From: an uncultured Acidobacteriota bacterium
GTDB taxonomy: Bacteria > Acidobacteriota > Thermoanaerobaculia > Multivoradales > JAHEKO01
DNA length: 21,383 nucleotides
NCBI GenBank assembly: GCA_963713825.1
Contig: CAVQNG010000008.1
Coordinates: forward strand, 1-21,383
Direction: 5' to 3'
This document shows, piece by piece, positions 1 to 13,062 of this stretch (positions are counted from its first letter, which is position 1; every line of letters starts with the position of its first letter). The translations under genes were made by a program, and so were the position numbers. The notes beneath the pieces were generated by a model. It saw only the letters and a program-made list of their open reading frames with translations, was not told the DNA's origin and did no database searches.

Positions 1-659
1 TCTTCGCCTACGCCATCGCGGCGAACGGAGAGGTGCGGGACTACTACGACCAGATCCTCGGGATCGACCTCGAGAAGGCCGGGCCGAACCTCGAACAGAA
101 GGGGCTCAAGTTCTGGAGCGAGTTCGATCTCCCGCCTGGCGAGTACCTCGCGAGGGTCCTCGTGCGCAATGCGGTGACAGGTGACTCGGGAGTAGCCGTG
201 TCCCCGTTTCGTGTGCCGGATGCGGGCATGGCGGAGCCGACCCTGCTGGCGCCGCTGTTTCCGGAGCCGGCCGGTCTGTGGCTGAACGTCCGAGGACAGC
301 GTGCTCTGGAGTCCGAGCAAGACTACCCGTTCACGGTGCAAGGCCAGGCCTTCGAGCCAGCCGTGAAGCCGATTCTGATTCCAGGGCAGAGCGCTGCGGT
401 ACTGCTCGCCGGTTACGGCCTCGGAGACGCGGTTCGGATCACGGGTGAGCTGCTGACTCCTGAGGGCGACCCGGCAGGAAGGGTCTTCCTGAACGTCGGC
501 GAGCGCCGGCCGGCTGAGGAGCCGGGTTTGTCGCAGTGGGCGGCCACGCTGAGCACGGGTCCGGTAGAGCCTGGTGACTACATTCTGGAGGTCACCGCAA
601 CGGATCCCGGGTCCCGCGAGACCTACTCCAGCTCGATCACGGTCTCCGTTTCGGGTTGA
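1..659 (+). CDS. 5'-partial CDS; C-terminal Ig-like region resembling Acidobacteria-type VWA-domain-containing proteins
   Basis: Frame is open from the window edge (FAYAIAANGEVRDYYDQ...) to TGA at 657-659. Two 'LPPGEYLARVLVRN' / 'VEPGDYILEVTATD' beta-sandwich signatures are typical of these C-termini. The VWA domain itself is not in the window. Confidence 0.6.
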   Translation, partial: FAYAIAANGEVRDYYDQILGIDLEKAGPNLEQKGLKFWSEFDLPPGEYLARVLVRNAVTGDSGVAVSPFRVPDAGMAEPTLLAPLFPEPAGLWLNVRGQRALESEQDYPFTVQGQAFEPAVKPILIPGQSAAVLLAGYGLGDAVRITGELLTPEGDPAGRVFLNVGERRPAEEPGLSQWAATLSTGPVEPGDYILEVTATDPGSRETYSSSITVSVSG

Positions 660-689: not shown

Positions 690-3600
690 CTACCGCCAAT
701 CCCCGGCGGCCACGAACCCCGCCCAGTAGAAGGGATGGGTACTCTCACCCGCTGTCCGCCGCGCTGCAAGCAGGTCGAGATTCGTGTGATGGACGGCTTC
801 GATTGTCGAGAGCCCGTCCATGAAACGATGCCGGTAGAGTTGGGACATCCAATCACGGGTGACATCGTCGTCCACCGGCCAGAGGCTCATGATCAGGGTG
901 CGCACCCCGGCAGCGGCGAAGGTGCGGCGCAGGCCGAGCACACCCTCGCCAGTCTGCACGTCACCGAGCCCGCTCTCGCACGCTGAAAGCACGGCCCAAT
1001 CGACACCCAGCAGATCGAGAGCCGCCACCTCCTCCGCGGTCAAGATGCCGTCGTCCTCGCTCGGCAGCGCTGCCTGACGGTGATTCGCACCCGCGAAAGC
1101 CAGCCCCGATCGCAGCAGGGGGCTCTCCATGGACACATCGGCCGCCCAGCGGCCGGGTAGCTCGTAGACCGGGCAGCCTGCTCCGAGGTAGAAGCCGTGG
1201 GTGGAGAGGTGAAGCACCTGTCGGCCAGCGGCGAGGCGCTTGAAGCTCGCCTCCAGAGCGTCGTCTCGGAACAGCGTCGTCACGGGTTGCGAGGCCCCGA
1301 AGCCCTGCCAGACTTCGGCGATTTCTTCGACTTCCCGTTCGCTGGCCGGCAGGGGGAGAAAGCGCATCGTCTGAAAGCTCTCGCAGGTCGAGCGCAGACC
1401 ACGGTCGACACTGTTCCCCGCTGCTTCTGTCGGGGATTCGGCAACGCCTGCTCCAGAGCCGATCCCCCCGGCAGCGGACAAGTACGCCGGCTCGTCGAAA
1501 TCCGGATTGCCGATCGCCAAGAGACCCTTGCCCATCGTCGGTGAGGTCTCCGCCACCAGGTCGCGCTCCGCGGACAGATAGTGCAGCAAAGGTCCAACCT
1601 CTGCGAGATACTCGCTCTTCCCGACCGGCAGCGCGGCCAGGCTGACCAGGTGCAGGCTGCCGTCCGGCACCACAAACACCTGCTGCAGGTCGGCCAGGTA
1701 GGGCTCGAGCGGTACCCAGATCAGCTGCCGAAATCGCTCTGCGACTTCTCGGTAGTCCGATTCCAGAGAGGAAGTCCCTAGAAGGGCGAGCTCCGCTTCT
1801 CTCTCGACTTCGGTCCTGAGCTCCTCGACCAGGGCTTCGATCTGGCTGGCTCTCCCCAGGTCGACGAGCTCGACTTCGGTGGACCCAGCTCGTAGCACGT
1901 AGGCCAGATACGAGGGTACGGGCTCCGCGGGGAGTGTCCTCTCGGCACCCTCTCCCACAGTCGAGAAGTGCCGGTAGCGTCTGAAACCCAGCAATCCGCT
2001 TTCCGCTGGCAGCGAAGCCATGACCTCGTCCAGGCCGACACCTTTCCCTTGCTCGCGAAGGCGGAATCGCCGATCGACCTCGGCGAGTGCTCTCTCGACC
2101 CGGTCGCGCTCTCTTCGGGCGTTGACGAGCGCCAGTTGAAACGAGTCGATCGCGTCGGGAGCTCCGGGACCCTGCACCGTGAGGTATGCCAACCTCTTGC
2201 GAGATCGCGTCAGATCGTCCAGCAGGCGGGCGGTACCCATGGCCGCACTGGTCGAGAGCTTCCGGCGACGGTCGGCGATCTCGTCCAGGACAAGGGCGCG
2301 GGATCGGATCAGGGCATCGACTCCCTGCTGTCTCGCACCCGACTCCGGCCTGTCGATCAGTAGAGAAAGTACTCTGTCCAAGCCTGAGGGGCGGTTCGCT
2401 GCGTACCGCAGAGCAACGCGTTCGCTCAGGCCGGACAGCATGATTCGGGAGTGCTCCCTGGCGATCACCTCGGCTTGGAGAGCCTGGTCGAATGCCGCCT
2501 TCCAATCCTTCGCCCGGATCCATCCGTCTGCGATCTTCAGACGGGTGGCGGCAGCTCGGGGATTCTGACGTCCGTAGAGCCGTTCGAGAATGATGACCGC
2601 CTCCTCGTAGATCGGAATGGCCTGGCTCGCGGCTCCCATCTCATCGATGAGATCGGCCAGTGCGACGAGGTTCTCGGCGAACTCGTGGTTCGGGACCCCG
2701 AGACCCTGCTGCCGGACCAGGAATCCTCGACTCAGAACCTCTCGGGCCTCTTCGTGCCGACCCTGGGCACGAAGCACTTGGCCGAGCGCTCTCGAGGCCT
2801 CATCCGATCCGGGCGTGCCCGGATGCGTGACGCAGCCGCGGATCTCGCAGGCGCGGCGGGCGAGCGGCTCGGCGCGCTCGAGATCTCCATCCGCCAGATA
2901 GAGTGCCGAGAGGGCGATGTAGTGGTCGGCCGTATACTGGCCGGCGATTCCGTAGAGACCGGTAGCGATCTGCAGACCCTGTTCGAGATGACGCCGGGCA
3001 TCCCCGAGCTCGCCCAGTTCGGTTTCGAGCTGCCCTAGCTGGGTGAGCAGCGATGCGGCTTCGATGCAGCCGGGTGCGTAGGTCCGCTCAGCGATTCCGA
3101 GAGCCTTCTCGTAGAGTTGTCGGGCCGAGACCAGGTCACCCTGGCGATACCGTAGGGATCCCAGGGCGCCGTAGGTCTTGGCGGACAGTCCGACTTCGGG
3201 GTACTGCTCGAAGATCGCGATGGAGCGCCACAGGCTCTCCTCGGCCGCTACCGGGTCTCCGCGGATCTCCTGAAGTTGGTGGATACCGTGCAGGTAGTGT
3301 CCGAGAAGGAGATGATCGGATCCCAGGGACTGCTCGAGGGACTGCACCGCCTCGCTCATCAACTCGAACGACTCCGTGTAACGGTGAAGCTCATGAAGGA
3401 CCCAACCGTAGAGGTAGAGACTCTGCGCGACGAGGGGATGGTCCTCCGGGAGTCGTCTCCGGCGGAGCTCGAGCGCCCGCCGGGTCAGTGCTTCGGCGGT
3501 GGCGCCGTAGTCTCCCGTCCGCGAATGGAGGTGAAACTCGGCGAGCCCGGTGAGCACCTCCGCCAACGTCAGCTCATCCGGCCTCGCGGCGCTCTCGGCT

Positions 3601-4163
3601 ATGCCGACAGCCAGGGCCGAGTGCCATTCGGCGTCTCGTGTCGGACCGGTGTGAAGAAAACGCTGGCCCAGCCGATGGTGGGCCCGGGCTAAGCTGATGT
3701 CGTCGGAGCCGGGGCTCGACTCGTAGATCTGCAGGGCCCTGGTGAGGAGGTCTCCAGCGACGGCGTAGCTGTCCGTGGCGAGCAGCACGTCAGCCTTGCG
3801 CACCAGGCTGTCCGCCACCAGCGGGTCGGAATCACCGAGCTGTGACTCTCGTATCGCCAGCGCGCGATCGGCCAGCTCCAGGGTCTCCGGCAGACTCGAC
3901 TTACCGCCGAGCTGGAGGGCTTCTACATAGTGGTCCAGCAACGCAGCCGTTGCGAGGGAGTCCGATCCCGTGAGGCTTTCGATCTCGGGGAGGAGGCCAT
4001 GGGCGAAGCGCTCTGCCGCGTCGTACTTGCCGAGATCGATCAGCTGCCCGACACGTTGGATCGCCTGATCGTAAGGATGAGCTTCAACCGAAGCGAGCGC
4101 ACTTGCGCACACCAACACGCTTCCGGCTCCGAGAAGCGCCATTCGCCAGCTTCGGTTTGCCAT
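690..4163 (-). CDS. TPR-repeat + CHAT domain (caspase/separase-like, HetF family) protease with N-terminal signal peptide
   Basis: 1157 aa. Kinesin-light-chain-like TPRs (ALAIRESQLGDSDPLVADSL, EDHPLVAQSL). CHAT motifs VFVVPDGSLHLVSL, LHLSTHGF (His989), VLSACESGLG (Cys1062), GEGVLGLRRTF, SLWPVDD, HPFYWAGF. The N-terminus MANRSWRMALLGAGSVLVCASALA is signal-peptide-like. Confidence 0.93.
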   Translation of the reverse strand: MANRSWRMALLGAGSVLVCASALASVEAHPYDQAIQRVGQLIDLGKYDAAERFAHGLLPEIESLTGSDSLATAALLDHYVEALQLGGKSSLPETLELADRALAIRESQLGDSDPLVADSLVRKADVLLATDSYAVAGDLLTRALQIYESSPGSDDISLARAHHRLGQRFLHTGPTRDAEWHSALAVGIAESAARPDELTLAEVLTGLAEFHLHSRTGDYGATAEALTRRALELRRRRLPEDHPLVAQSLYLYGWVLHELHRYTESFELMSEAVQSLEQSLGSDHLLLGHYLHGIHQLQEIRGDPVAAEESLWRSIAIFEQYPEVGLSAKTYGALGSLRYRQGDLVSARQLYEKALGIAERTYAPGCIEAASLLTQLGQLETELGELGDARRHLEQGLQIATGLYGIAGQYTADHYIALSALYLADGDLERAEPLARRACEIRGCVTHPGTPGSDEASRALGQVLRAQGRHEEAREVLSRGFLVRQQGLGVPNHEFAENLVALADLIDEMGAASQAIPIYEEAVIILERLYGRQNPRAAATRLKIADGWIRAKDWKAAFDQALQAEVIAREHSRIMLSGLSERVALRYAANRPSGLDRVLSLLIDRPESGARQQGVDALIRSRALVLDEIADRRRKLSTSAAMGTARLLDDLTRSRKRLAYLTVQGPGAPDAIDSFQLALVNARRERDRVERALAEVDRRFRLREQGKGVGLDEVMASLPAESGLLGFRRYRHFSTVGEGAERTLPAEPVPSYLAYVLRAGSTEVELVDLGRASQIEALVEELRTEVEREAELALLGTSSLESDYREVAERFRQLIWVPLEPYLADLQQVFVVPDGSLHLVSLAALPVGKSEYLAEVGPLLHYLSAERDLVAETSPTMGKGLLAIGNPDFDEPAYLSAAGGIGSGAGVAESPTEAAGNSVDRGLRSTCESFQTMRFLPLPASEREVEEIAEVWQGFGASQPVTTLFRDDALEASFKRLAAGRQVLHLSTHGFYLGAGCPVYELPGRWAADVSMESPLLRSGLAFAGANHRQAALPSEDDGILTAEEVAALDLLGVDWAVLSACESGLGDVQTGEGVLGLRRTFAAAGVRTLIMSLWPVDDDVTRDWMSQLYRHRFMDGLSTIEAVHHTNLDLLAARRTAGESTHPFYWAGFVAAGDWR

Positions 4164-4171
4164 GGTTCAGC

Positions 4172-4900
4172 TCATTCTGGGATCTGCTCGAGAACCTCCT
4201 CTGCTCGGGTTTGCAGCTCTCCACCCACCCAGATGACGTCGGACAGGTCGGCGAGTGCGGAATCGAGATCGCCGAGGCGCAGGTGCGCCTTGGCGCGGTA
4301 GAAGTGGGCCCACTCCGAGTAGGGGGTGTCTTCGAACCCCGCCACATGGCTCAGGCTGTCGATGGCCTCTTCCGGCCTATTCTCCAGGAGATAGCAGGCA
4401 CCGAGATAGAAATGGGCCTTGTCGAGGCCCTCATCGAGGGCGACCGCATTCTCCAGTCCTGGAATCGCCGCAGCGAGGTCACCCTCCTCGTAGGCGGCCA
4501 TCGCCTCCCGGAATGCGAGTTCTCCCTCACCCACCACGCTTCGGAGCGTACTGGGTTCGTAGGGCGGGGCTTCGACGGCCGAAGCGGCGATCAGGACCTG
4601 ATCGGTGGGAGATCCCGCCCAGGGGGCGAGCCAGAGGACCAGACCGAGCCCCGCTACGATCACGGCTGCCGCCAGGAGCCACCAGGGGTTGAAATCGGCT
4701 CTCGAAGGCGCCGCTGGGCTCAGCTCTTCCCGAGGAGCGTTCGAAAGTGCGGCACGAATGGCGGCATGGTCTTGCAGCGCCCGATAGCAGTCTTCGCACT
4801 CGAAGAAGTGCTGCTCGAACGCCGCTGTGTCCGCCTCATTCAGCTGGCCGGCGGAGTAGCGCTCGACGATCTGCTTGTCAGCCACATTCGTGCAGTTCAT
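4172..4900 (-). CDS. Membrane-anchored anti-sigma factor: zf-HC2 zinc finger + TM helix + extracytoplasmic TPR domain
   Basis: 242 aa. FEQHFFECEDC (HxxxCxxC), hydrophobic WWLLAAAVIVAGLGLVLWLAPW, TPR helices (AHFYLGACYLLENRPEEAI; AHFYRAKAHLRLGDLDSA). Directly downstream of the ECF gene with a GGGAG RBS. Confidence 0.88.
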   Translation of the reverse strand: MNCTNVADKQIVERYSAGQLNEADTAAFEQHFFECEDCYRALQDHAAIRAALSNAPREELSPAAPSRADFNPWWLLAAAVIVAGLGLVLWLAPWAGSPTDQVLIAASAVEAPPYEPSTLRSVVGEGELAFREAMAAYEEGDLAAAIPGLENAVALDEGLDKAHFYLGACYLLENRPEEAIDSLSHVAGFEDTPYSEWAHFYRAKAHLRLGDLDSALADLSDVIWVGGELQTRAEEVLEQIPE

Positions 4901-4928
4901 GTCGGCTCCCGTTCTAGGAGTAGCACTT

Positions 4929-5492
4929 TCAGCGATTTTGTGACCCTTTTTCTTTCAAGAATGCACGAACCTGGCGCAACGCTCGTGACTTTCTTTTTCG
5001 CACGACCTCAGAGCTCAGGCCCATTTTGGCTGCAATCTCGGCCGATCCCTGGCCGTCGATGACGCTCGCCTGCAGAATGGCGCAATCGCTGCTCTTGAGA
5101 GATTGAATCGCCTGGAGGGCTAGCCGACTCCGCTCGACGCTGGAGAAGCACTGTTCGGGATCGGGCAGGTCGATCTGGAGGTCGTCAGTTAGTTTCGTTT
5201 CCTTGCGCTGGGCGCGGCCCCGAAAGAAGAAGCTGATCGTGTTGCGAGCGGTGGTACAGATGTAGGCGACCAGGCTGTCGTGGTTCCGCAGGCGGCCTTC
5301 GCGGAGGGCACACAGCACCGAGATCATGACCTCCTGGGCGAGATCTCGTGCAATTTCCGGATCTCCGGTCCGGGCCAGGGCCATAGCGAAGATCCGACCT
5401 TGAAAGCGCTGCACCAGCTCTGACTCGGCTTCGGAGTCACCGAGCCCGATGCGTTCCACCAGGCCAGCTGTTCCGCTCTCGGTCGCCATCAT
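4929..5492 (-). CDS. ECF-subfamily sigma-70 RNA polymerase sigma factor
   Basis: 187 aa (start may be the second ATG at 5489). Region 2 (GDSEAESELVQRF, ARDLAQEV, AYICTTARN) and region 4 HTH (SAEIAAKMGLSSEVVRKRKSRAL). GAGGGA RBS. Confidence 0.93.
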   Translation of the reverse strand: MMATESGTAGLVERIGLGDSEAESELVQRFQGRIFAMALARTGDPEIARDLAQEVMISVLCALREGRLRNHDSLVAYICTTARNTISFFFRGRAQRKETKLTDDLQIDLPDPEQCFSSVERSRLALQAIQSLKSSDCAILQASVIDGQGSAEIAAKMGLSSEVVRKRKSRALRQVRAFLKEKGSQNR

Positions 5493-5521
5493 TCCCTCGG
5501 GCTGCAGCGAGTGACTCCCTG

Positions 5522-5550
5522 ATTCTATTCGCCCCCTGCGCCTCCCGAAA
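5522..5550 (-). promoter_or_regulatory. Candidate housekeeping sigma70-type promoter of the ECF operon (TTTCGG-N17-TAGAAT)
   Basis: TAGAAT on the minus strand at 5522-5527 with a weak -35 at 17 nt spacing. TAGAAT also occurs in other intergenic regions (19474-19479 minus, 20065-20070 plus). Confidence 0.35.
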
Positions 5551-5577
5551 GCACATCGATCGAGATCGATCTTTCTC

Positions 5578-5605
5578 GGTCACGAATCCCGATCTCGTGC
5601 ATCTC
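5578..5605 (+). promoter_or_regulatory. Putative ECF promoter copy 1 (GGTCAC-N16-CATCTC)
   Basis: Same motif, spacing and 58-nt distance to the ATG upstream of all four paralogs. Followed by ATGAAC and an AAAGGAGG RBS. Confidence 0.75.
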
Positions 5606-5635
5606 TCCTCATGAACGATCCGAAAGGAGGACGTG

Positions 5636-7042
5636 ATGAGGAAGATCTCGAAGTGTCTGCTCGGAGCTGCGGTGCTGCTATTGCTCGGGGAGGCCATCTG
5701 CAGCGCCAACCTGATCAGCTATATCGAGCGAAGGGCCAACAAAGAGGTGCTGATCGTGATGGAGGACGACGGCACCAACCCCGTCGAGCTCTTCGTGGCT
5801 GGCAGGCGCGACCCTGCCATCGAAGGACCCACGGTGTCGCCTGCGGGGCTGGAGGAGCCTTGGGTGCTCTTCAACCAATCGGACATCTACAGAATTCGAC
5901 CCGACGGCACCGGTCAGGACTTGGTTCTCTGCGTCGGCGGCACCGACAGGTTCGGAGCGCCCTATTACATACACCTATGGGTCGGAATCTGGTCGCCCGA
6001 TGGTTCTCAGATACTTTTTCAGTCAAACAGATCTTTCGATGGGGCGGGAGAGACATTCCTTGCGCTGCTTCCCGCGGACCACACCGCGAATGAATCCTGT
6101 ACCAGTGCGTTGACCGAGATCCATAAGCCCCCCTCTCCCTGGTATGTAGATGCCGGGCCTGCGGCCTGGAATCATGATGGCTCGCGAATCGCCTTCTACG
6201 AGAGCAATATGGACACCTGGCAGAGCCGTTTGGCCGTGATCGAGCGTACTGCGCCTGGAGTCTGGGAGCGTATCGATACCCTTTCGCTCCCCGTCCTGGA
6301 CGAGTTTTATGCAAGGGATCTTTCCTGGCGGCCGCAGTCTGGGAGCGGTCTAGTGATCTTCCGCCTGAGGAACGACACGGGGCATTGGCTTGCTGCAATC
6401 GATCTCCATTCCCGTGACTGGGACTACGTTCGGAACAATGGGAGCCCGATTGAGATGGCTTGGGACAGCTACCCCAAATGGTCGTCCGATGGAAACGAAA
6501 TTCTCTTTACCGATCCCGATGGCAATCTCGTTCGATGGACCTACCCTGACGGCGACCGCCAGGTGATTGGTTCCGGATTCCGGAGTGATTGGCAGCGGGA
6601 TGTGTTCGTCAGTTCCTGTGAAGCGGACGTTGATTGCGATGACGGCAATGTCTGCACGTTCGATTCCTGTGTTGCGGGTAGCTGCGAGCACGACCCCTTG
6701 AACGGTGGCACCTGCGGTGTCGGCGGTTGGTGCGTGGAAGGAAGCTGCTTCGAGCCGGAGTGCACCGAAAGCGCCGACTGCGAGGACTTCAACGAGTGCA
6801 CGACCGCGGAGTGCGTTGGTTACGCCTGCCTCGTGACCAATGTTGGGGTGGGCACTCCCTGCACCGATGACGGAGACTCCTGCACGGTCGACACCTGCAA
6901 CGGTGCAGGTACCTGCGAAAGTGTCTTCGATCCGGACATCCCCGGTTGCGAGCCGGTCTGTGGGGCCAAGGGTGAATTCTGCACCTCCGGCGCCGACTGC
7001 TGCTCCGGCCTCTGTCACCCGGTGAAAGGGGAGTGCAAGTAA
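5636..7042 (+). CDS. Secreted TolB/PD40-like beta-propeller + Cys-rich repeat + knottin-like protein, paralog 1
   Basis: AGGAGG at 5625-5630 favours ATG 5636 (GTG 5633 is an alternative). Signal peptide, WSPDGSQILF, AWNHDGSRIAF, PKWSSDGNEILF. The tail has 24 Cys with CDDGNxCTxDxC-type repeats. Confidence 0.85.
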   Translation: MRKISKCLLGAAVLLLLGEAICSANLISYIERRANKEVLIVMEDDGTNPVELFVAGRRDPAIEGPTVSPAGLEEPWVLFNQSDIYRIRPDGTGQDLVLCVGGTDRFGAPYYIHLWVGIWSPDGSQILFQSNRSFDGAGETFLALLPADHTANESCTSALTEIHKPPSPWYVDAGPAAWNHDGSRIAFYESNMDTWQSRLAVIERTAPGVWERIDTLSLPVLDEFYARDLSWRPQSGSGLVIFRLRNDTGHWLAAIDLHSRDWDYVRNNGSPIEMAWDSYPKWSSDGNEILFTDPDGNLVRWTYPDGDRQVIGSGFRSDWQRDVFVSSCEADVDCDDGNVCTFDSCVAGSCEHDPLNGGTCGVGGWCVEGSCFEPECTESADCEDFNECTTAECVGYACLVTNVGVGTPCTDDGDSCTVDTCNGAGTCESVFDPDIPGCEPVCGAKGEFCTSGADCCSGLCHPVKGECK

Positions 7043-7078
7043 TCAGGCAGTACTCTCAGGGACGCATTATAGGCGTTG

Positions 7079-7117
7079 CAGCGACCAGGAGAGCTTCGGC
7101 TCCTGGTCGCTGTTTGT
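7079..7117 (+). terminator. Repeated terminator-like hairpin, copy 1
   Basis: CAGCGACCAG(GA)GAGC-TTCG-GCTCCTGGTCGCTG followed by TTTGT. 14-bp stem, 2-nt bulge, cUUCGg tetraloop, short U tract. Confidence 0.65.
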
Positions 7118-7134
7118 CTGTGGAGCAGATTTTC

Positions 7135-7162
7135 GGTCACAGATCCCGGTTTCGAGCATCTC
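7135..7162 (+). promoter_or_regulatory. Putative ECF promoter copy 2
   Basis: GGTCAC 7135-7140, N16, CATCTC 7157-7162; 58 nt to ATG 7193. Confidence 0.75.
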
Positions 7163-7192
7163 TATTGATGAACACGCCGAAAGGAGGACGTG

Positions 7193-8635
7193 ATGAAGAG
7201 GGTTTCGAAGTGCCTGTTGGCGGTTGCGGTACTGCTGTTGCTCGGGGATGCCGTCTGCCGCGCCAACTTGATCGCCTACACGACGTCGTCGAAGAACCGC
7301 GAACGGTTGATGGTCATGGAGGACTCCGGGGCCGATCCCACCCAGCTTGTCCTAGGCGCCAAGTTCTCGCCCCTCTACGCGTTTCCTTCGGTTTCGCCGG
7401 CCGGTGGCACGGACGGCACCTGGATCTTGTTCAGCGAATACTACGATCTCTACAAGATCCGACCTGACGGCAGTGAAAAGACCATGGTCTTGTGCGGCGG
7501 GGGTACGGACTCGTATGGAGATCCCTATTCCTTGGAGATCTTCGGCGCCGACTGGTCACCCGATGGGTCCGAGATTCTCGTCTACACATACCCAGTTGAC
7601 CTCACGGCGTTCTATCCGTGGTTCCTCGGCCTGATTCCGGCGACCCACACGGCAGAGCCGGGCGAAAGCTGCCCCAGTTCCCTCGTGAGGATCTACCCAG
7701 ACCCGGATTCCCCTTGGGGTCCTGATGGACCGGCCGCTTGGAACCAAGACGGCTCACAGCTCGCCTTTCTGGAATTCAATGCACTCACCTATGAAAGCCG
7801 AATGTCTGTCATCGAACGCCAGGCGTCGGGCGCGTGGGAGCCGGTCGACAGCTTCGTACCCATTCTGGGATCTCCTGATCTGCCTCACGACCCCACCGTG
7901 TTCTTTCTCGACTGGCAGCCTGGAACCAGCCTTCTGACTTTCAGGCTGAGGGGATCAGATGAACGAAGGCCCCCCTACTGGCTGGCCTCGATCGACCTGG
8001 ATACCCACGTCATGGACTTTGTTTTGGACAAGGGCAGCCGAATCGAAATGGATATCCGTAGCAGTCCCAGCTGGTCGGCCGACGGAAGCCAGATCCTCTT
8101 CACGGACCCAGATGGGAACCTCGTGAAGTGGACCTATCCCGACGGTGACCGTGAGGTGGTCGGCTCGGGTGACTGGGCCCACTGGCAGCGGGATCTGGTA
8201 CTCACCTCGTGTGAGCTAGACACCGACTGCAATGACCTCAACGAGTGCACGACCGACACCTGTTTGGCTGGCACCTGTAGCCACGCTAGCTTGGACGGTG
8301 ACGGGTGCGGCGACGGTGGCTGGTGCGTGGATGATTCCTGTCTCGAGCCTGAATGTGAATTCGACACCGATTGCGAAGACTCCAACGAATGCACGACCGA
8401 GGAGTGCGTCGGATATGCCTGTGTCGTGACCGACGTCGCGGCGGGCACTCCCTGCACCGACGATGGAGACTTCTGCACGGTCGACGCCTGCAACGGAGCT
8501 GGCGCCTGCGAGAACGTCTTCGATCCGAATCTCCCCGGCTGTGAACCTCTCTGCGGAATCGTGGGAGACCCCTGCAGCTCCGGTGCCGACTGCTGCTCCG
8601 GGCTCTGCCACCCGAAGAAGCACGTGTGCAAGTAG
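7193..8635 (+). CDS. Secreted beta-propeller + Cys-rich + knottin-like protein, paralog 2
   Basis: AGGAGG RBS (GTG 7190 is an alternative start). Signal peptide, WSPDGSEILV, AWNQDGSQLAF, PSWSADGSQILF, Cys-rich tail ending CCSGLCHPKKHVCK. Confidence 0.85.
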   Translation: MKRVSKCLLAVAVLLLLGDAVCRANLIAYTTSSKNRERLMVMEDSGADPTQLVLGAKFSPLYAFPSVSPAGGTDGTWILFSEYYDLYKIRPDGSEKTMVLCGGGTDSYGDPYSLEIFGADWSPDGSEILVYTYPVDLTAFYPWFLGLIPATHTAEPGESCPSSLVRIYPDPDSPWGPDGPAAWNQDGSQLAFLEFNALTYESRMSVIERQASGAWEPVDSFVPILGSPDLPHDPTVFFLDWQPGTSLLTFRLRGSDERRPPYWLASIDLDTHVMDFVLDKGSRIEMDIRSSPSWSADGSQILFTDPDGNLVKWTYPDGDREVVGSGDWAHWQRDLVLTSCELDTDCNDLNECTTDTCLAGTCSHASLDGDGCGDGGWCVDDSCLEPECEFDTDCEDSNECTTEECVGYACVVTDVAAGTPCTDDGDFCTVDACNGAGACENVFDPNLPGCEPLCGIVGDPCSSGADCCSGLCHPKKHVCK

Positions 8636-8710
8636 GCGACCTCGGTCAATTAGCGTCGGCTAGAGGCGTTTCGGCGACCAGGAGAGCTTCGGCTCCTGGT
8701 CGCTGTTTGT
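8239..8710 (+). repeat. ~472-bp near-identical direct repeat, copy A (3' end of paralog 2 + hairpin)
   Basis: Matches 9785-10256 at offset 1546. By eye there are only two mismatches, both synonymous (8596/10142, 8602/10148). Confidence 0.9.
8672..8710 (+). terminator. Repeated terminator-like hairpin, copy 2
   Basis: CGGCGACCAGGAGAGC-TTCG-GCTCCTGGTCGCTG-TTTGT. The A>G change relative to copy 1 keeps pairing as G-U. Confidence 0.65.
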
Positions 8711-8728
8711 ATTCAGGCGCAGATTTTC

Positions 8729-8756
8729 GGTCACAGATCCCGATCTCGCGCATCTC
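8729..8756 (+). promoter_or_regulatory. Putative ECF promoter copy 3
   Basis: GGTCAC 8729-8734, N16, CATCTC 8751-8756; 58 nt to ATG 8787. Confidence 0.75.
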
Positions 8757-8786
8757 TATTCATGAACGATCCGAAAGGAGGACGTG

Positions 8787-10181
8787 ATGAGGAAGATCTC
8801 GAAGTGTCTGCTCGGAGCTGCGGTGCTGCTGTTGCTCGGAGAGGCTGTCTGTAGTGCCAACCTGATCAGCTACTCGACCTGGCCGGCCCGACGGGACAAG
8901 TTGATGGTGATGGACGAGGACGGAGGCAATCCGGTCGAGGTTCTCGTGATGAGCAAGGGCTCGTTCCCGGGGGGCGGATCGATCTCCCCGGCGGGCTTGG
9001 AGGAGACCTGGATCCTCTTCAATGATCTCGAAAACGTCTACAAGATCCGACCTGACGGCACCGATCAGACTCTGGTCCTTTGCGCCCCGGGCACGACTCA
9101 CCCTTATGGCCTGGGCGATCCGATCTGGTCGCCCGACGGATCCGAGATCCTCGTCACGCCCTATGATGAATTCCATCCCGCCTTCCTCGCGCTGATTCCC
9201 GCGGACCACACCGCGGGCGACACCTGCAACAGTGAATGGACCCAGATCTATGAATTCGACCCGCCCTGGGGCCTGGATGCAGAGCCTGCCTGGAACCATG
9301 ATGGCTCCCGAATCGCCTTTAGTGCATGGAAGCCATCAATCGACCCGGAACGACCCGACGGGGAAATCCAACTGGTCGTCATCGATCGTCTGGCGTCGGG
9401 GGCCTGGGAGCGTATCGATGATCCCATCCCTCTAGATTACGGCTTCTCACCTATGGACTTCTCCTGGCGGCCGCAGGCAGAGAGCCTTCTGCTGATATGC
9501 CGCGTGAGGGACGACCATGGCGTCTGGCTCGCTTCGGTCGACCTCGATACCGGCGCCTGGGACTATGTCCTGGACGGGGGCAGTCGAATCGAGATGACTC
9601 TCGGTAGTACCCCCCGTTGGTCGTCCAACGGGGAGGAGATTCTCTTCACGGACCCCGAGGGCGATCTGGTCATCTGGAATTACCTCAACGGTTCCCGCCG
9701 GACTGTCGGCTCCGGCACCTGGGCCGATTGGCAGCGGGATGTCGTCGTCAGCTTTTGTGAAGCGGACATTGATTGCGATGATGGCAACGAGTGCACGACC
9801 GACACCTGTTTGGCTGGCACCTGTAGCCACGCTAGCTTGGACGGTGACGGGTGCGGCGACGGTGGCTGGTGCGTGGATGATTCCTGTCTCGAGCCTGAAT
9901 GTGAATTCGACACCGATTGCGAAGACTCCAACGAATGCACGACCGAGGAGTGCGTCGGATATGCCTGTGTCGTGACCGACGTCGCGGCGGGCACTCCCTG
10001 CACCGACGATGGAGACTTCTGCACGGTCGACGCCTGCAACGGAGCTGGCGCCTGCGAGAACGTCTTCGATCCGAATCTCCCCGGCTGTGAACCTCTCTGC
10101 GGAATCGTGGGAGACCCCTGCAGCTCCGGTGCCGACTGCTGTTCCGGCCTCTGCCACCCGAAGAAGCACGTGTGCAAGTAG
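8787..10181 (+). CDS. Secreted beta-propeller + Cys-rich + knottin-like protein, paralog 3
   Basis: AGGAGG RBS (GTG 8784 is an alternative start). Signal peptide nearly identical to paralog 1, WSPDGSEILV, AWNHDGSRIAF, PRWSSNGEEILF. Tail from NECTTDTC onward is identical to paralog 2. Confidence 0.85.
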   Translation: MRKISKCLLGAAVLLLLGEAVCSANLISYSTWPARRDKLMVMDEDGGNPVEVLVMSKGSFPGGGSISPAGLEETWILFNDLENVYKIRPDGTDQTLVLCAPGTTHPYGLGDPIWSPDGSEILVTPYDEFHPAFLALIPADHTAGDTCNSEWTQIYEFDPPWGLDAEPAWNHDGSRIAFSAWKPSIDPERPDGEIQLVVIDRLASGAWERIDDPIPLDYGFSPMDFSWRPQAESLLLICRVRDDHGVWLASVDLDTGAWDYVLDGGSRIEMTLGSTPRWSSNGEEILFTDPEGDLVIWNYLNGSRRTVGSGTWADWQRDVVVSFCEADIDCDDGNECTTDTCLAGTCSHASLDGDGCGDGGWCVDDSCLEPECEFDTDCEDSNECTTEECVGYACVVTDVAAGTPCTDDGDFCTVDACNGAGACENVFDPNLPGCEPLCGIVGDPCSSGADCCSGLCHPKKHVCK

Positions 10182-10256
10182 GCGACCTCGGTCAATTAGC
10201 GTCGGCTAGAGGCGTTTCGGCGACCAGGAGAGCTTCGGCTCCTGGTCGCTGTTTGT
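9785..10256 (+). repeat. ~472-bp near-identical direct repeat, copy B
   Basis: Matches 8239-8710. Confidence 0.9.
10218..10256 (+). terminator. Repeated terminator-like hairpin, copy 3
   Basis: Identical to copy 2. Confidence 0.65.
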
Positions 10257-10274
10257 CTCTAGGTGAAGATTTTC

Positions 10275-10302
10275 GGTCACATTTCGCCACTTCGAGCATC
10301 TC
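10275..10302 (+). promoter_or_regulatory. Putative ECF promoter copy 4
   Basis: GGTCAC 10275-10280 and CATCTC 10297-10302. The spacer ATTTCGCCACTTCGAG has diverged in sequence but is still 16 nt; 58 nt to ATG 10333. Confidence 0.75.
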
Positions 10303-10332
10303 TATTCATGAACGCGCCGAAAGGAGGACGTC

Positions 10333-11763
10333 ATGAAGAGAGCTTCGAAGTGCCTTCTCGGAGCAGCGGTACTGCTGTTGTTCGGGGCCGCCATCTGCAG
10401 CGCCAACCTGATCAGCTACATCGAGCCTAGGGCCAACAAAGAGGTGTTGATCGTGATGGAGGACGACGGCACCAACCCCGTCGAGCTCTTCGTGGCTCGC
10501 AACCGCGACCCTGCCATCGAGGGACCCACGGTGTCGCCCGCGGGCCCCGATGAGTCCTGGATCCTCTTCAACCAACAGCACATCTACAAGATTCCACCAG
10601 GCGGTGGCGATCCGGTCCTGGTGCTTTGCATCGGGGGCACGGACACCTTCGGAGCACCGTACTACTGCCACGGTGCTGGCGGGCGCTGGTCACCCGACGG
10701 ATCGGAGATCCTCTTTCATTGCCATGACTCCGTCGGTTCCCACGAGGGGTCGTCTCTCGCGCTACTAGGCGCTAACCACACAGCGGACGAGACCTGTGCC
10801 AGCGAGTTGATCCGGATCTACGAAGCCCCGTTGCCCTGGGGCGTAGATGGGCCAGCGACCTGGAACCACGATGGCTCACAGATCACCGTTCTGGAGATCA
10901 ATTCGGACAACGAGGAGACCGAGGAAGGCCGCCTGGCCGTGATCGAACGCCAAGCGTCTGGAGTTTGGGAGCGGATCCACACCAAGGAGCTGACTCCAGG
11001 CTCCCCTGATCTGCAGGACCACTATCCACAGGATCTCTCCTGGCAGCCGCAGGCTGAAAGCCGTCTCCTGACCTTCCGTTTGAGGGATGGGGTGGGTTAC
11101 TGGCTCGCTTCGGTCGATCTCGATACCGGCGTCTGGGACTATGTCCTGGACAAGGGGGGGAGTCAGGTCCAGCTGGGTTTCGACAGTTACCCCCGATGGT
11201 CGTCCAACGGTGAGGAGATCCTGTTCACGGACCAGGAGGGCAACCTTGTGCGTTGGACCTACCCTGACGGAGACCGCCAGGTGATCGGCTCCGGATTCCG
11301 GAGCGATTGGCAGCGGGATGCGGTCGCTGGGGTTTGCGGCGACGGAAACTGTGCTGGCTCGGAGAACCAGTGCAACTGTGCACTGGATTGCGGAGCCTAC
11401 CCATCGGATGAAGCCGGACTGTGCAGCGATCTCACAGACAACGATTGCGATGGGCCCATCGACTGCGAGGACAGCGACTGCAAGTGGGACGAGGCCTGCC
11501 CCTTCTGTGGGGACTTCGTTTGTAACGGGGACGAGACAGAGTGCAGCTGTTCCGTGGACTGCGGCACTCCTCCGAGCTCCGAAGCAGGTCTGTGCACAGA
11601 TGGTGTCGACAACGACTGCGATGGCGACTTCGACTGCGATGACCCTGATTGCTCGGACGATCAGGCCTGCACCAGTACGTGTGGAGCCAAGGGCGAGGCC
11701 TGTGCCACAGGCGACGACTGCTGCTCCGGCTTGTGCCACCCGGTGAAGCTGGAGTGCAAGTAG
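10333..11763 (+). CDS. Secreted beta-propeller + Cys-rich + knottin-like protein, paralog 4 (different Cys-rich stalk)
   Basis: 476 aa. Signal peptide and same propeller motifs. Stalk of two CGDxxCxGxExxCxCxxDC...CxDxxDNDCDGxxDCxDxDC units, ending CCSGLCHPVKLECK. Confidence 0.85.
   Translation: MKRASKCLLGAAVLLLFGAAICSANLISYIEPRANKEVLIVMEDDGTNPVELFVARNRDPAIEGPTVSPAGPDESWILFNQQHIYKIPPGGGDPVLVLCIGGTDTFGAPYYCHGAGGRWSPDGSEILFHCHDSVGSHEGSSLALLGANHTADETCASELIRIYEAPLPWGVDGPATWNHDGSQITVLEINSDNEETEEGRLAVIERQASGVWERIHTKELTPGSPDLQDHYPQDLSWQPQAESRLLTFRLRDGVGYWLASVDLDTGVWDYVLDKGGSQVQLGFDSYPRWSSNGEEILFTDQEGNLVRWTYPDGDRQVIGSGFRSDWQRDAVAGVCGDGNCAGSENQCNCALDCGAYPSDEAGLCSDLTDNDCDGPIDCEDSDCKWDEACPFCGDFVCNGDETECSCSVDCGTPPSSEAGLCTDGVDNDCDGDFDCDDPDCSDDQACTSTCGAKGEACATGDDCCSGLCHPVKLECK
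11335..11679 (+). repeat. Internal tandem duplication of a 57-58 aa Cys-rich unit in paralog 4
   Basis: Units start at 11335 (CGDGNCAGSE) and 11506 (CGDFVCNGDE), period 171 nt. Each contains EAGLCxDxxDNDCDG. Confidence 0.8.
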
Positions 11764-11851
11764 GAACCTGATCAGGGTTCTTGTGTCAGGGGAATTGGTG
11801 GCCGGGCTGGTCAGGCTCGGCCACTTGGCGGGTCTCGCCGGCAGATTCGAG

Positions 11852-11881
11852 TGTCACTGCCCTGTCGATTTCGCTATTCTT
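11852..11881 (+). promoter_or_regulatory. Possible ECF-type promoter variant (TGTCAC-N16-CTATTCTT)
   Basis: Conserved upstream of both lipoprotein genes; shares the GTCAC core with the array promoters. Confidence 0.45.
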
Positions 11882-11905
11882 AGGAAGGAAGGAGGGCCGA
11901 GTAAC

Positions 11906-12355
11906 ATGACGCTGTCGAGATCGAGCTCATTCGAGTCGGCGCTGCAGATTGTGGTACTCGCCTCGCTTCTGCTCTTCGGGGCTGCCTGCGGTGGCGGTGG
12001 TGGGAGCAGTCCCACCGAGCCGCTACCACCGGCACCAGAAATCCTGGTCCTCCATGTCAGTTGGGAGTACGACATAGGAGGCGGCCCGATAGCAGGAGTG
12101 ACCCACCCGATCGCGGGTAACACGATCCTTCTACAGAACGTTGATGGAGGGTATTGCGAGGCTGTAGATGGGTGGACTGTGTGCTATCCAGACGTCGCTG
12201 AATGTAGGACAACGCCCGAGGGCGGTCTCCAAGCCTACCACCACGAATCCCTCACGGGCGATCAACCAGGGACGCTGGGTCCTCTCGTGACCTCCGGCTG
12301 CAGCTTCGCCGAGGAATACGGCTACTACACGAAGTGCTGCCTGGTCGATTCCTGA
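11906..12355 (+). CDS. Putative lipoprotein of unknown function, paralog A
   Basis: ATG 11906 follows AAGGAGGG and aligns with the start of paralog B (the ORF-track start at 11783 is too far upstream). LLLFGAA-C-GGGGGSSPTEP is a lipobox-like site plus tether. 149 aa. Confidence 0.75.
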   Translation: MTLSRSSSFESALQIVVLASLLLFGAACGGGGGSSPTEPLPPAPEILVLHVSWEYDIGGGPIAGVTHPIAGNTILLQNVDGGYCEAVDGWTVCYPDVAECRTTPEGGLQAYHHESLTGDQPGTLGPLVTSGCSFAEEYGYYTKCCLVDS

Positions 12356-12362
12356 CGTAGGC

Positions 12363-12403
12363 TTCCGGCCTCTGCCACCAGAAGCAGCACGTGTGTAAGT
12401 AGG
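12363..12403 (+). pseudogene. Remnant of the 3' end of a paralog 2/3-type Cys-rich gene
   Basis: TTCCGGCCTCTGCCACC-AGAAGCAGCACGTGTGTAAGTAGG aligns with TTCCGGCCTCTGCCACCCGAAGAAGCACGTGTGCAAGTAGG (10142-10182; SGLCHPKKHVCK-stop) with only a few differences. Confidence 0.75.
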
Positions 12404-12490
12404 TACTCGGTACGCGGTCTGGCGCCAAGGGAATGGGAGGCCGGGCTGGTCAGGCCCGGCCACTTGGCGGGTTTCGACGGCAGGTCCGAG

Positions 12491-12520
12491 TGTCACGGCT
12501 CTGCCGATTTCCCTATCCTT
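12491..12520 (+). promoter_or_regulatory. Possible ECF-type promoter variant (TGTCAC-N16-CTATCCTT)
   Basis: Homologous to 11852-11881 with the same spacing. Confidence 0.45.
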
Positions 12521-12540
12521 GAGGAGGAAGTAGAAGAACC

Positions 12541-13062
12541 ATGAAGCTGTCGAGTTCGGGGTCATTCGGGTCGGTGCTACAAATCGCAGCACTCGCCTCG
12601 CTTCTGCTCTTCGGGGCTGCCTGCGGTGGCGGTGGTGGGAGTAGCCCAACGGAGCCGGTAGCGCCCGCCCCGGAAGTACTCGTAGTGCATGTCAACTGGG
12701 TGTACGAGGTGGATGAGGATGAGGGCCTGGTGACAGGCACGAGCTACCCTATCGCCGGGAACGAGATCGTTCTTCTCAGTCGCGATGGACATCCTGGCAC
12801 CACTTGTACAAAAGACGGGGTCTGGGCACCGTGCCTTTTCTTCTATGGGGACGACGGCGAGATCGTGGAGGTTGTCTGGAACCCTGAGAATGTCCGTTTC
12901 ATCGCCGAGTGCCGCACCACGTCGGACGGCGAAGTACAGGCCTACTATCATGATCCCTACTCACATTCAGGTCCCGGCACTCTGGGTCCTCTCGTCACCT
13001 CCGGCTGCAGCAGGGCCGAAGAGTGGGGTCACTATGCCCAGTGCTGCCTGGCGGATTCCTGA
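12541..13062 (+). CDS. Putative lipoprotein of unknown function, paralog B
   Basis: 173 aa. Same signal/lipobox-like site and tether. Conserved C-terminus AECRTT...PGTLGPLVTSGCSxAEExGxYxxCCLxDS. Confidence 0.78.
   Translation: MKLSSSGSFGSVLQIAALASLLLFGAACGGGGGSSPTEPVAPAPEVLVVHVNWVYEVDEDEGLVTGTSYPIAGNEIVLLSRDGHPGTTCTKDGVWAPCLFFYGDDGEIVEVVWNPENVRFIAECRTTSDGEVQAYYHDPYSHSGPGTLGPLVTSGCSRAEEWGHYAQCCLADS

Follow-up and report, generated by a model that had tools for sequence, protein, structure and literature searches.

The DNA analyzed here (hereafter the window; 21,383 nucleotides, nt) is one entire contig, C8, of a 38-contig, 5.42-Mb assembly of an uncultured Acidobacteriota bacterium. It carries a three-gene operon encoding a sigma factor of the extracytoplasmic function (ECF) type, an anti-sigma factor that is bound to the membrane, and an exported protein in which tetratricopeptide repeats (TPRs) precede a caspase-like CHAT protease domain. 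Divergent from this operon lie six genes for secreted proteins, four propeller proteins (P1 to P4) and two small putative lipoproteins (S1 and S2), and the promoter-like sequences described below suggest that the propellers are very probably switched on by the adjacent sigma module. The genes are arranged as follows:

690–4163, minus strand: gene of the TPR-CHAT protein (1157 amino acids, aa)
4172–4900, minus strand: gene of the anti-sigma factor (242 aa)
4929–5492, minus strand: gene of the ECF sigma factor (187 aa; Sigma70_r2, r4_2, TIGR02937)
5633–7042, plus strand: P1, six-bladed TolB-like propeller, Cys-rich region, and six-Cys tail
7190–8635, plus strand: P2, paralogue of P1 (57% identity to P1)
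8784–10181, plus strand: P3, paralogue in the P family
10333–11763, plus strand: P4, paralogue that shares the C-terminal six-Cys tail and differs in its Cys-rich middle module (acidic double-disulfide repeats)
11906–12355, plus strand: S1, small putative lipoprotein with a lipobox-like LLFGAAC, a Gly-rich linker, and a Cys-containing C-terminus
12541–13062, plus strand: S2, paralogue of S1 (54% identity)

The gaps within the operon are 8 nt between the CHAT and anti-sigma genes (4164–4171) and 28 nt between the anti-sigma and ECF genes (4901–4928). The true start of S1 is the ATG at 11906, versus the GTG at 11783 of the mechanically called open reading frame (ORF). By a hydrophobicity reading, the CHAT protein and all six plus-strand products begin with a hydrophobic, signal-like segment.

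The sigma factor belongs to the ECF (group IV) proteins of the sigma-70 family: the Pfam scan returned Sigma70_r2 (E 4.4e-10) and r4_2 (E 9e-7) and no other sigma domain, and TIGR02937 of NCBIfam was matched at 69.2 bits (cut-off 42.9). No NCBIfam subfamily or equivalog was matched at or over its cut-off, and an existing ECF classification group may still cover this protein. Its partner has the features of a class I, zinc-binding transmembrane anti-sigma factor, namely an HxxxCxxC domain, one membrane helix, and a gene beside that of the ECF, and is predicted to bind the sigma factor. Pfam matched zf-HC2 at 23.0 bits (cut-off 22.2) together with TPRs; the zinc-finger residues are of the CHCC type (C3, H31-x3-C35-x2-C38), and a single hydrophobic segment (residues ∼70–98), with the membrane helix placed at ∼72–95, is followed by a TPR domain (∼125–235) predicted to be periplasmic. 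In an alignment of 35 anti-sigma sequences, E29, H31, C35, C38, L119, and R120 are invariant. The last two residues, kept in 35/35 sequences, end a juxtamembrane motif, EAPPYEPxxLR, which reads (E/D)(A/P)PxYxPxxLR across homologues, follows a linker of variable length, and has P112, Y114, and P116 nearly invariant as well. Besides scattered TPR core positions, this motif is the only strongly conserved feature of the ectodomain, and it sits in the linker, outside the TPR fold. Conservation of this kind would look like that of a protease site or a docking motif.

In the third protein of the operon, Pfam located the CHAT domain (PF12770, E 3.3e-58) at residues 806–1155 and seven TPR_12 stretches; ∼17 TPR-like helix pairs lie between the signal-like segment and the CHAT domain. 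The catalytic dyad H989/C1062, named in a prediction made earlier from the letters of the window alone (the original prediction), is indeed found at these positions, with H989 invariant and C1062 nearly invariant among 60 homologues. Two cysteines outside the dyad, C927 and C997 (window ∼1383–1385 and ∼1173–1175, minus strand), are nearly invariant in the same 60 sequences, which would fit a disulfide in an exported protease. The structure model of the protein (predicted local distance difference test, pLDDT, 88.4; predicted template modeling score, pTM, 0.87) was matched by Foldseek to human separase (E 6e-15), to the Myxococcus anti-sigma factor DdvA (8rot_A, E 1.6e-11), and to Csx29 of the type III-E craspase (E 3.6e-10). 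By its domain, its dyad, and the separase-like fold of the model, the protein is a TPR-CHAT protease, and proteolytic activity is predicted for it. With 12,541 cluster representatives at E values up to 1e-30, the family is a very large one. Sequence searches of the PDB retrieved TPR proteins only, and the CHAT half retrieved nothing. A relative in which anti-sigma factor and CHAT are fused was not found in a search of longer proteins (three matches, TPR-only), which is weak evidence.

When complex prediction was applied to the anti-sigma ectodomain (residues 100–242) and residues 301–1157 of the CHAT protein, the result was rated "weak support," with a score of 0.37 versus 0.00 for the best of three controls; the runs shared at least 63% of contacts, and partner pLDDT was at least 84. 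The mark applied is reached by 58 of 80 solved complexes and by 2 of 110 mismatched pairs, and passes with a score of 0.60 or lower came from only 7 of the 80 solved complexes and from both mismatched pairs that passed. This weak pass bears on binding between CHAT and the anti-sigma factor and says nothing on cleavage; no interface was reported.

The original prediction had assigned a GTCAC-containing, promoter-like motif to each of the six divergent genes. All six indeed have GTCAC, at 5579, 7136, 8730, 10276, 11853, and 12492, which is 49–57 nt before the start codons, and in every case a hexamer of the form C-W-W-C/T-Y-C follows after 16 nt, a spacing like that of ECF promoters. Not part of that prediction were a box of the same type before the anti-sigma gene, a housekeeping-type promoter element before the ECF gene, and the cassette mosaicism described further below. 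The elements recognized are as follows:

5579–5605, plus strand: GTCAC-N16-CATCTC before P1
7136–7162, plus strand: GTCAC-N16-CATCTC before P2
8730–8756, plus strand: GTCAC-N16-CATCTC before P3
10276–10302, plus strand: GTCAC-N16-CATCTC before P4
11853–11879, plus strand: GTCAC-N16-CTATTC before S1
12492–12518, plus strand: GTCAC-N16-CTATCC before S2
4918–4945, minus strand: ECF-type box GGTCAC-N16-CTACTC before the anti-sigma gene, at a distance of 45 nt from its start and overlapping the final codons and stop codon of the ECF gene
5522–5527, minus strand: TAGAAT, hexamer resembling a −10 element of the housekeeping type, ∼30 nt upstream of where the ECF gene starts
7078–7113, plus strand: intrinsic-terminator-like hairpin after P1 (14 pairs, T-rich tail)
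8672–8705, plus strand: terminator-like hairpin after P2
10218–10251, plus strand: terminator-like hairpin after P3

As P1, P2, and P3 are each followed by a hairpin, they look like separate transcription units. TAGAAT was not called by a generic sigma-70 scan, which found no good −35 element. Across the genome, 16 box matches precede a gene with a signal peptide, 10 of them in module loci. Because P1–P4 and S1/S2 are duplicates, the six boxes would amount to about two independent cases and the window alone proves little; their significance therefore has to come from comparisons outside the window.

With a profile built from 35 anti-sigma homologues, 39 loci were found in public genomes, mostly of Acidobacteriota (Thermoanaerobaculia, Vicinamibacterales, Bryobacterales, Terriglobales, and Aminicenantes); from outside this phylum come one record each of Steroidobacteraceae and Gemmatimonas and one further gammaproteobacterial record. 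The zinc-finger anti-sigma factor is always present in these modules. The three genes, which the original prediction had taken for a tight operon and whose coordinates bear this out, keep their order in 21 of the 26 loci L140–L165 and, more loosely, in two more (L158 and L164). The anti-sigma-gene box, as GTCAC(G/A)AA-N13-CTACTC, was found in 8/8 close modules, with GTCAC 40–45 nt before the start; these are on five contigs of this assembly and on C3, in one same-genus genome, and in one same-family genome, C3 and C7 being near-identical. In modules from other genomes, GTCAC occupies the same position in 21 of 30, again 40–45 nt ahead of the start codon, and GTAAC or GACAC replaces it in 7 more (two of the 30, L140 and L141, duplicate two of the eight close modules), whereas the chance of GTCAC is 6% per 70-nt stretch. 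Since the C-terminal residues of the ECF differ between modules, the box is not explained by constraint on the protein encoded by the overlapping codons. Before the ECF gene, TAnAAT occurs ∼30–40 nt from the start in 11 of 19 modules, and no conserved ECF-type box is kept there in the modules compared. An autoregulatory box considered for the ECF gene of the window, GTCAC at 5511–5515 (minus strand), was rejected, as the ATG follows after only 18 nt and neither C28 nor C7 has kept this GTCAC.

Boxes were also sought beside neighboring genes, with one uniform regular expression applied to 22 modules from other genomes. In 16/22, a box was found near a neighboring gene: 13 modules have it divergent from the ECF (within 350 nt) and 5 after the CHAT gene (within 250 nt), two of them having both. 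Controls of the same regions in the wrong orientation gave one and two matches. The consensus of the neighbor boxes is GTCACGTT...CCACT(C/T/A). All 18 box sites that were followed up have a downstream ORF, most with a signal-like N-terminus. Fourteen of these ORFs were scanned in Pfam (left out were two short, low-complexity ones, one that starts 239 nt off, and one site inside a gene), and they comprise Kelch propellers (L145 and L163), a DUF5122 propeller with SLH domains (L150), an SBBP propeller with a P-domain (L165), a PD40 propeller (L148), a TonB-receptor-like barrel with CarboxypepD_reg (L141), an ORF with a weak DUF3466 match (L144), and seven ORFs without a family, including L146 with only a weak SOP4 match. 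When a scan of the two nearest genes on each side of the 22 modules (67 proteins) was combined with the results on gene order and on the ORFs behind boxes, a gene of a beta-propeller family was a near neighbor in 12 (13 counting L148, where the gene is further off); the families are PD40, Kelch, FG-GAP, DUF5122, SBBP, Vgb-lyase-like, and the P family itself. CarboxypepD_reg and outer-membrane barrel genes neighbor five modules (L141, L144, L155, L156, and L162). Genes of this kind with a large OMP_b-brl_4 barrel lie at L144:14639–18340, L155:13865–17791, L156:4977–7328, and L141:42–2945, the one in L156 between the anti-sigma and CHAT genes.

A P gene divergent from the ECF recurs in one other Acidobacteriota assembly, which has several tandem modules (L142, L143, and L146) with the box GTCAC-N16-GTACTC, and, judging only by equal lengths of the longest contigs, homologues of P and of the anti-sigma factor probably occur together on four further contigs. 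For the same-genus genome, identity to the window is ∼78% over the 85 nt that comprise box, leader, and first codons and only ∼22% for the propeller protein; the regulatory head is held while the propeller body diverges. The same-family genome has GGTCAC-N16-CATCTT before an unrelated, TonB-receptor-like gene. The regulon hence seems readable from the sequence, as originally proposed, and local, with the bipartite box recurring in distant modules before unrelated target genes. The array of four plus two genes is confined to this contig.

Within the assembly, tblastn with the window proteins located CHAT, anti-sigma, and ECF genes divergent from a P gene also on C28 (CHAT identity 73%), on C7 and C3:253–260 kb (68%; C7 is 99% identical to C3), on C13 (41%), and on C15, where CHAT is interrupted by a TGA. 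C8, C28, C7, and C3:239–260 kb are collinear over the whole contig at 72–86% DNA identity; C13 and C15 are, judging by their different flanks, true paralogues. The divergent P genes have GTCAC followed after 16 nt by a C-rich hexamer, which is CATCTC on C8 and C28, GAACTC on C7/C3, and CAACTC on C15; on C13 it is CACCTT, after 17 nt. At C15:1535–3900, the CHAT gene contains one in-frame TGA and matches in pieces, while the anti-sigma, ECF, and P genes appear intact; this module may be decaying. The anti-sigma gene of C3 (255448–256172) matches in two pieces in different frames and is intact on the 99%-identical C7 (8774–9502), so that one of the two copies has either a frameshift or an assembly error.

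The four P proteins are mutually 57–61% identical. In the model of P1 (pLDDT 77.9 overall), residues 23–326 form a six-bladed, TolB-like propeller at a pLDDT of ∼90, followed by a poorly predicted Cys-rich stretch and a better predicted C-terminal part; Foldseek matched it to TolB (1crz, E 3e-11, TMt 0.53) and also to LRP6. The assignment as a six-bladed PD40 propeller follows from this model, the Pfam matches to PD40 being weak (23.6 bits for P1, cut-off 20.9; P2 and P3 are below it); P1 also has a weak Dicty_CTDC match. A propeller followed by small disulfide-rich modules is also the layout of LRP-type receptors, which combine a YWTD propeller with modules of the epidermal growth factor type, whereas the N-terminal domain of TolB is missing from the P proteins. 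They were not accepted as TolB orthologues, as TIGR02800 was matched at 20–31 bits (cut-off 343) and no tol or pal genes are nearby. The last 26 residues of P1 have the spacing C-x6-C-x5-CC-x3-C-x6-C, and 12 of 14 family members keep it, the exceptions being a truncated member and another whose tail is shorter. The name knottin, originally given to this tail, describes a resemblance in cysteine spacing and is not a finding: no curated knottin family was matched, the sub-threshold matches to inhibitor-cystine-knot toxin families of spiders and cone snails being led by Toxin_29 (18 bits, cut-off 25), with conotoxin families lower. With the Cys-rich part of P, a sequence search of the PDB gave a single match, the P2X4 head (E 0.048). 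The match of P4 to NCBIfam NF033662 (31.7 bits) stayed under the cut-off of 41. For S1 and S2, Pfam and NCBIfam scans returned no family, and the best protein-atlas score for S2 was 0.80, below the useful range.

DNA identity between the P genes is distributed unevenly. In a sliding window, P2 and P3 are 100% identical over codons 391–480 (the C-terminal 90) and 48–78% identical elsewhere; P1 and P4 are 83–93% identical over codons 1–90 and 36–50% in the Cys-rich part; and P1 and P3 are 92% identical over codons 1–30. Moreover, P3 is 90–100% identical to the single P gene of C28 across the propeller. Between these two contigs, the CHAT, anti-sigma, ECF, ligase, and permease genes differ by a synonymous divergence (dS) of 0.76–1.01, with a ratio of nonsynonymous to synonymous divergence (dN/dS) of 0.10–0.24, while dS is 0.34 overall for P3 and the C28 P gene, the proportion of synonymous differences (pS) falling to 0.05 in the propeller core. 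The mosaic of identities and the low dS point to a recent exchange of head, propeller, and tail segments between loci that otherwise diverged anciently, and such reshuffling suggests that the P proteins are variable binding proteins. Among short contigs derived from sediment and salt-marsh sequencing runs, many diverge from the window and a few joints link paralogues (6657>10110 and 8182>6590 in X6); these could be recombinants or assembly chimeras, and no conclusion was drawn from them.

The P family is tiny: among 5.8 billion proteins, 13 have the full architecture, and this assembly accounts for 4 of these. No full-length match was found in 40 relatives or in 400 genomes of the class, where 12 matches covered the propeller only and 3 the tail only. 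A related-locus search with P1 alone gave a single, partial Cys-rich match, and a search of metagenome contigs with the P alignment, a generic PD40 pattern, gave only generic TolB-like propellers. The Cys-rich tail (profile positions 383–476) also forms the ends of otherwise unrelated ORFs of 551–732 aa, which lie in three further genomes from the class, including a same-genus one (G004:C179:724–984, G390:C105:5714–5974, and G160:C17:320381–320566); in its behavior, the tail is thus a mobile module of the C-terminus.

The closest known system is DdvS/DdvA of Myxococcus xanthus, in which the anti-sigma factor is fused to a periplasmic TPR-CHAT and the regulon consists of a cyclic-oligonucleotide-based anti-phage signaling system (CBASS) and a CRISPR island, according to the accessible part of the report (PMC11506125). 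The original prediction had stated that neighborhoods of ECF, zf-HC2, and CHAT genes lack a characterized output, which this system contradicts. As at the present locus, an ECF is held by a single-pass CHCC zinc-finger anti-sigma factor, a periplasmic TPR-CHAT of the separase/craspase type carries a His-Cys dyad, and several sigma-dependent promoters are clustered around the regulator genes; similarity at the sequence level was not detectable in the search of PDB sequences. In contrast to DdvA, the TPR-CHAT is here a separate, exported protein, and the anti-sigma factor has a small TPR ectodomain of its own. Furthermore, the box GTCAC-N16-CWWCTC differs from the GTAA-N16-CGT given for DdvS in the part of that paper available (PMC6061681); it stands before the anti-sigma gene, whereas PddvSA, as far as described there, drives ddvS-ddvA from before the sigma gene; and the output consists of secreted propellers and lipoproteins rather than CBASS and type III-B CRISPR. 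Neither cas nor CBASS domains were found among the window proteins by Pfam and NCBIfam, and PADLOC matched 0/8 proteins. In broad terms, the locus thus resembles DdvS/DdvA, but it departs from that system in three features that define it, namely fusion, promoter, and regulon.

In the type III-E craspase (Cas7-11, Csx29, Csx30, and an RpoE-like sigma factor), a TPR-CHAT is thought to free an ECF-type sigma factor by cutting its inhibitor, but that system is cytoplasmic, RNA-guided, and dependent on Cas7-11. The analogy, which the original prediction had drawn, is loose: apart from the structural match to Csx29, the protease is here exported, the anti-sigma factor is a membrane protein, and no cas gene occurs in the window. 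A craspase module was rejected on the same grounds, as there is no Cas7-11 in the window and the CHAT protein has a signal-like segment instead of a cytoplasmic location. In the canonical systems of regulated intramembrane proteolysis, sigma-E/RseA/DegS/RseP and sigma-W/RsiW/PrsW, a single-pass anti-sigma factor receives an extracytoplasmic site-1 cut and then an intramembrane site-2 cut, and the regulon includes the anti-sigma gene. Unlike these, the locus encodes its candidate site-1 protease, a caspase-like TPR-CHAT, in the operon itself, and the ECF gene seems not to be autoregulated, TAnAAT being its recurrent upstream element and the ECF-type box beginning at the anti-sigma gene. The actinobacterial group ECF54 shares an ECF conserved beside CHAT/TPR genes, next to genes for subtilases and carboxypeptidase-regulatory-like proteins (PMC8999054; PMC7826278), and CarboxypepD_reg proteins neighbor several modules here. 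In the available parts of these sources, ECF54 differs in that it is described without an anti-sigma factor, from Actinobacteria only, and with the motif GTATCAG / CTCC.

Taken together, these findings lead us to propose a periplasm-sensing ECF switch with a local regulon. Constitutive expression from a housekeeping promoter would supply the sigma factor, which the anti-sigma factor would keep at the membrane. The trigger is the least certain step: in the periplasm, a cue that is probably a protein caught by the TPR arrays would activate CHAT, and CHAT would then cut the anti-sigma ectodomain at or beside PPYEPxxLR, acting as a site-1 protease in trans. Separase cuts after Arg. Intramembrane proteolysis would follow and release the sigma factor, which would transcribe the six secreted-protein genes as separate units and, in addition, the anti-sigma and CHAT genes, thereby providing negative feedback and resetting. 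The output would be a repertoire of secreted, TolB-like propellers with Cys-rich tails. Judged by box position and conservation, the local regulon and the feedback wiring are highly probable. That CHAT cleaves the anti-sigma factor is put forward tentatively. Its role as the trigger, which draws on the strict linkage of CHAT to the anti-sigma factor despite changing targets, on the conserved dyad, on the invariant motif in the linker, on a proposal by the authors of the DdvA study, and on the weak complex pass, is conceivable but somewhat doubtful. For the explanation as a whole, including sigma release by a CHAT cut and the propeller output, we see not quite an even chance. A wider reading, in which the locus represents a split version of DdvA, a periplasmic caspase switch spread across Acidobacteriota and a few Gammaproteobacteria with a non-autoregulated ECF, and in which the cassette-shuffled, lineage-dependent secreted propellers (PD40, Kelch, DUF5122, SBBP, and FG-GAP) provide inducible and variable surface recognition or counterattack against phages, competitors, or prey, is speculative and unlikely to hold in full; within it, the propeller may feed back as a ligand of the TPR sensor.

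A number of observations weigh against the proposed switch. The GTCAC pentamer alone is not enriched in the window (52 found versus 50.15 expected). The −10-like hexamer is degenerate (CATCTC, CTACTC, CTATYC, or CCACTn) and lacks the CGT common in ECF promoters. A degenerate two-block regular expression was not enriched genome-wide (346 matches versus 373–535 in scrambled controls), so that the motif cannot be used to find distant regulon members, and a full-width weight matrix built from seven anti-sigma boxes recovered its own sites only; it left the P boxes below 12 bits because its spacer columns were over-fitted. Two of the 30 modules have no box before the anti-sigma gene, 6/22 have no neighboring box by the regular expression, the copy on the main chromosome (C3) and that on C28 hold one P gene each, and the promoter assignments build on position and conservation only. 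At its most sceptical, one could attribute linkage and boxes to tandem duplication and chance, the array being a mere neighbor of the operon and the copies stemming from related strains binned together. P1–P4 and S1/S2 were duplicated with their upstream DNA, the copies on C8, C28, C7, and C3 are collinear variants, and many small contigs are 80–99% identical variants of large-contig regions, all of which would fit, as would the pentamer count. What such an account leaves aside is that the box is found at a fixed distance in modules with unalignable flanks, in other genera and orders, and before unrelated genes, with wrong-strand controls nearly empty; the six-gene array, for its part, stands on a single contig, whatever the other contigs are. 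This explanation is close to refuted, and we regard it as extremely improbable.

The role of CHAT is the more serious question. Complex prediction gave a weak pass, and by the calibration of the tool such a pass is more often wrong than right unless the interaction was likely beforehand. Being encoded behind an ECF-type box and hence itself induced, CHAT could equally be an output, for example a maturation enzyme that trims or releases the Cys-rich tails or acts on an external target, with the anti-sigma factor inactivated through its own TPR-bound ligand and the usual proteases. L151 and L159, which have ECF and anti-sigma genes but no CHAT gene in the available DNA, agree with this alternative, as do the P-type Cys-rich tails on other proteins encoded beside the second-class CHAT genes of C14 and C16; in L161, the CHAT gene lies upstream. 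A dedicated maturation protease would, however, be expected to follow its substrate, whereas CHAT stays linked to the anti-sigma factor in the great majority of loci while the targets switch family (Kelch, DUF5122, SBBP, FG-GAP, PD40, or an outer-membrane barrel), and most of those targets lack the Cys-rich tail. CHAT as an output enzyme is thus not very likely. The same wiring could also operate with TPR-CHAT as a shield or co-anti-sigma factor that sits on the small TPR ectodomain and excludes the site-2 protease by its bulk, until a cue that detaches or consumes it exposes the anti-sigma factor. The accessible text on DdvA provides a precedent, in that RseP is kept off by its bulky periplasmic TPR-CHAT, and a DdvA truncated so as to lack this part is cleaved (PMC11506125). 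The split form would make such a shield detachable, co-transcription from the ECF-type box would keep anti-sigma factor and CHAT in step, and the complex score supports binding and not cleavage. Yet the conservation of the dyad argues for catalysis on some substrate, and the invariant LR motif lies in the linker and not in the TPR fold. We consider a mere shield unlikely and retain the trans-cleavage model as the working explanation. The DdvA authors themselves propose CHAT-mediated site-1 cleavage of the juxtamembrane linker, as a proposal only in the portion of the paper available (PMC11506125).

An operon with split ECF, TPR anti-sigma factor, and exported TPR-CHAT, an internal promoter, and propeller outputs was not found described in the literature searched, in which "anti-sigma" and "TPR-CHAT" occurred together only in papers on DdvA and on type III CRISPR. 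In the main text of the ECF classification paper, CHAT does not occur, and the accessible part of its supplement mentions CHAT for ECF54 alone (PMC7826278). In DdvA, the one studied case of a periplasmic TPR-CHAT in anti-sigma signaling, self-cleavage is proposed, and protease and presumed substrate are joined in a single protein. The version found here, split by nature, would offer the two as separate proteins, so that trans cleavage, the LR motif, and the dyad become directly testable in vitro. The tiny, sequence-readable regulon would likewise make a clean set of ECF, promoters, and anti-sigma factor, with an unusual pair of −35 and −10 elements and with feedback on the inhibitor arm only. 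The predicted outputs, secreted propellers of at least five unrelated repeat families across lineages, represent a recurrent pairing without a described function, and recent cassette exchange in the propeller genes suggests that, in these poorly known bacteria of sediments, an extracellular binding protein is under pressure to diversify.

The genes that flank the module in the window are shared with some of its copies. An adenylate-forming enzyme gene resembling PaaK/F390 synthetase (LIG; 13164–14501, plus strand), for which every NCBIfam match is far under its cut-off, and a gene for a duplicated permease of the ADOP family (14544–17024, minus strand; 705.8 bits, over its cut-off) adjoin the module also in C3, C7, and C28. 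LIG was considered as a regulon member and rejected, as it has no box at the right spacing and TACAAT upstream. On the other side (3–659, plus strand), a conserved gene of ∼720 aa converges on the CHAT gene in C8, C28, C7, and C3; it is full length at C28:344–2503 and C7:3081–5261, has a further, 60%-identical copy on C1, and showed no Pfam family, only a weak C-terminal Y_Y_Y match. Elsewhere in the assembly, ∼25 small contigs (4–66 kb) are 73–100% identical variants of a few large-contig regions and of one another, and cluster at a handful of loci, both CHAT module loci included. They may be hypervariable or multi-copy islands, segmental duplicates, or alleles of co-binned relatives.

A second type of module, with all genes on one strand, occurs on C13 (17872–26236), C14 (4000–10927), C15 (18044–20115), and C16 (3400–9526). 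It consists of a longer sigma-70 family protein, a zinc-finger anti-sigma factor, and a TPR-CHAT of 980–990 aa, and goes on with a protein of 627–772 aa whose end is the Cys-rich tail also seen in P4, and then a propeller. In the C13 module, the latter is a PD40 propeller of 525 aa without a GTCAC box upstream. Just after this module, at C13:27426–29069, lies a gene for a 547-aa protein with four beta/gamma-crystallin and three Inhibitor_I36 domains.

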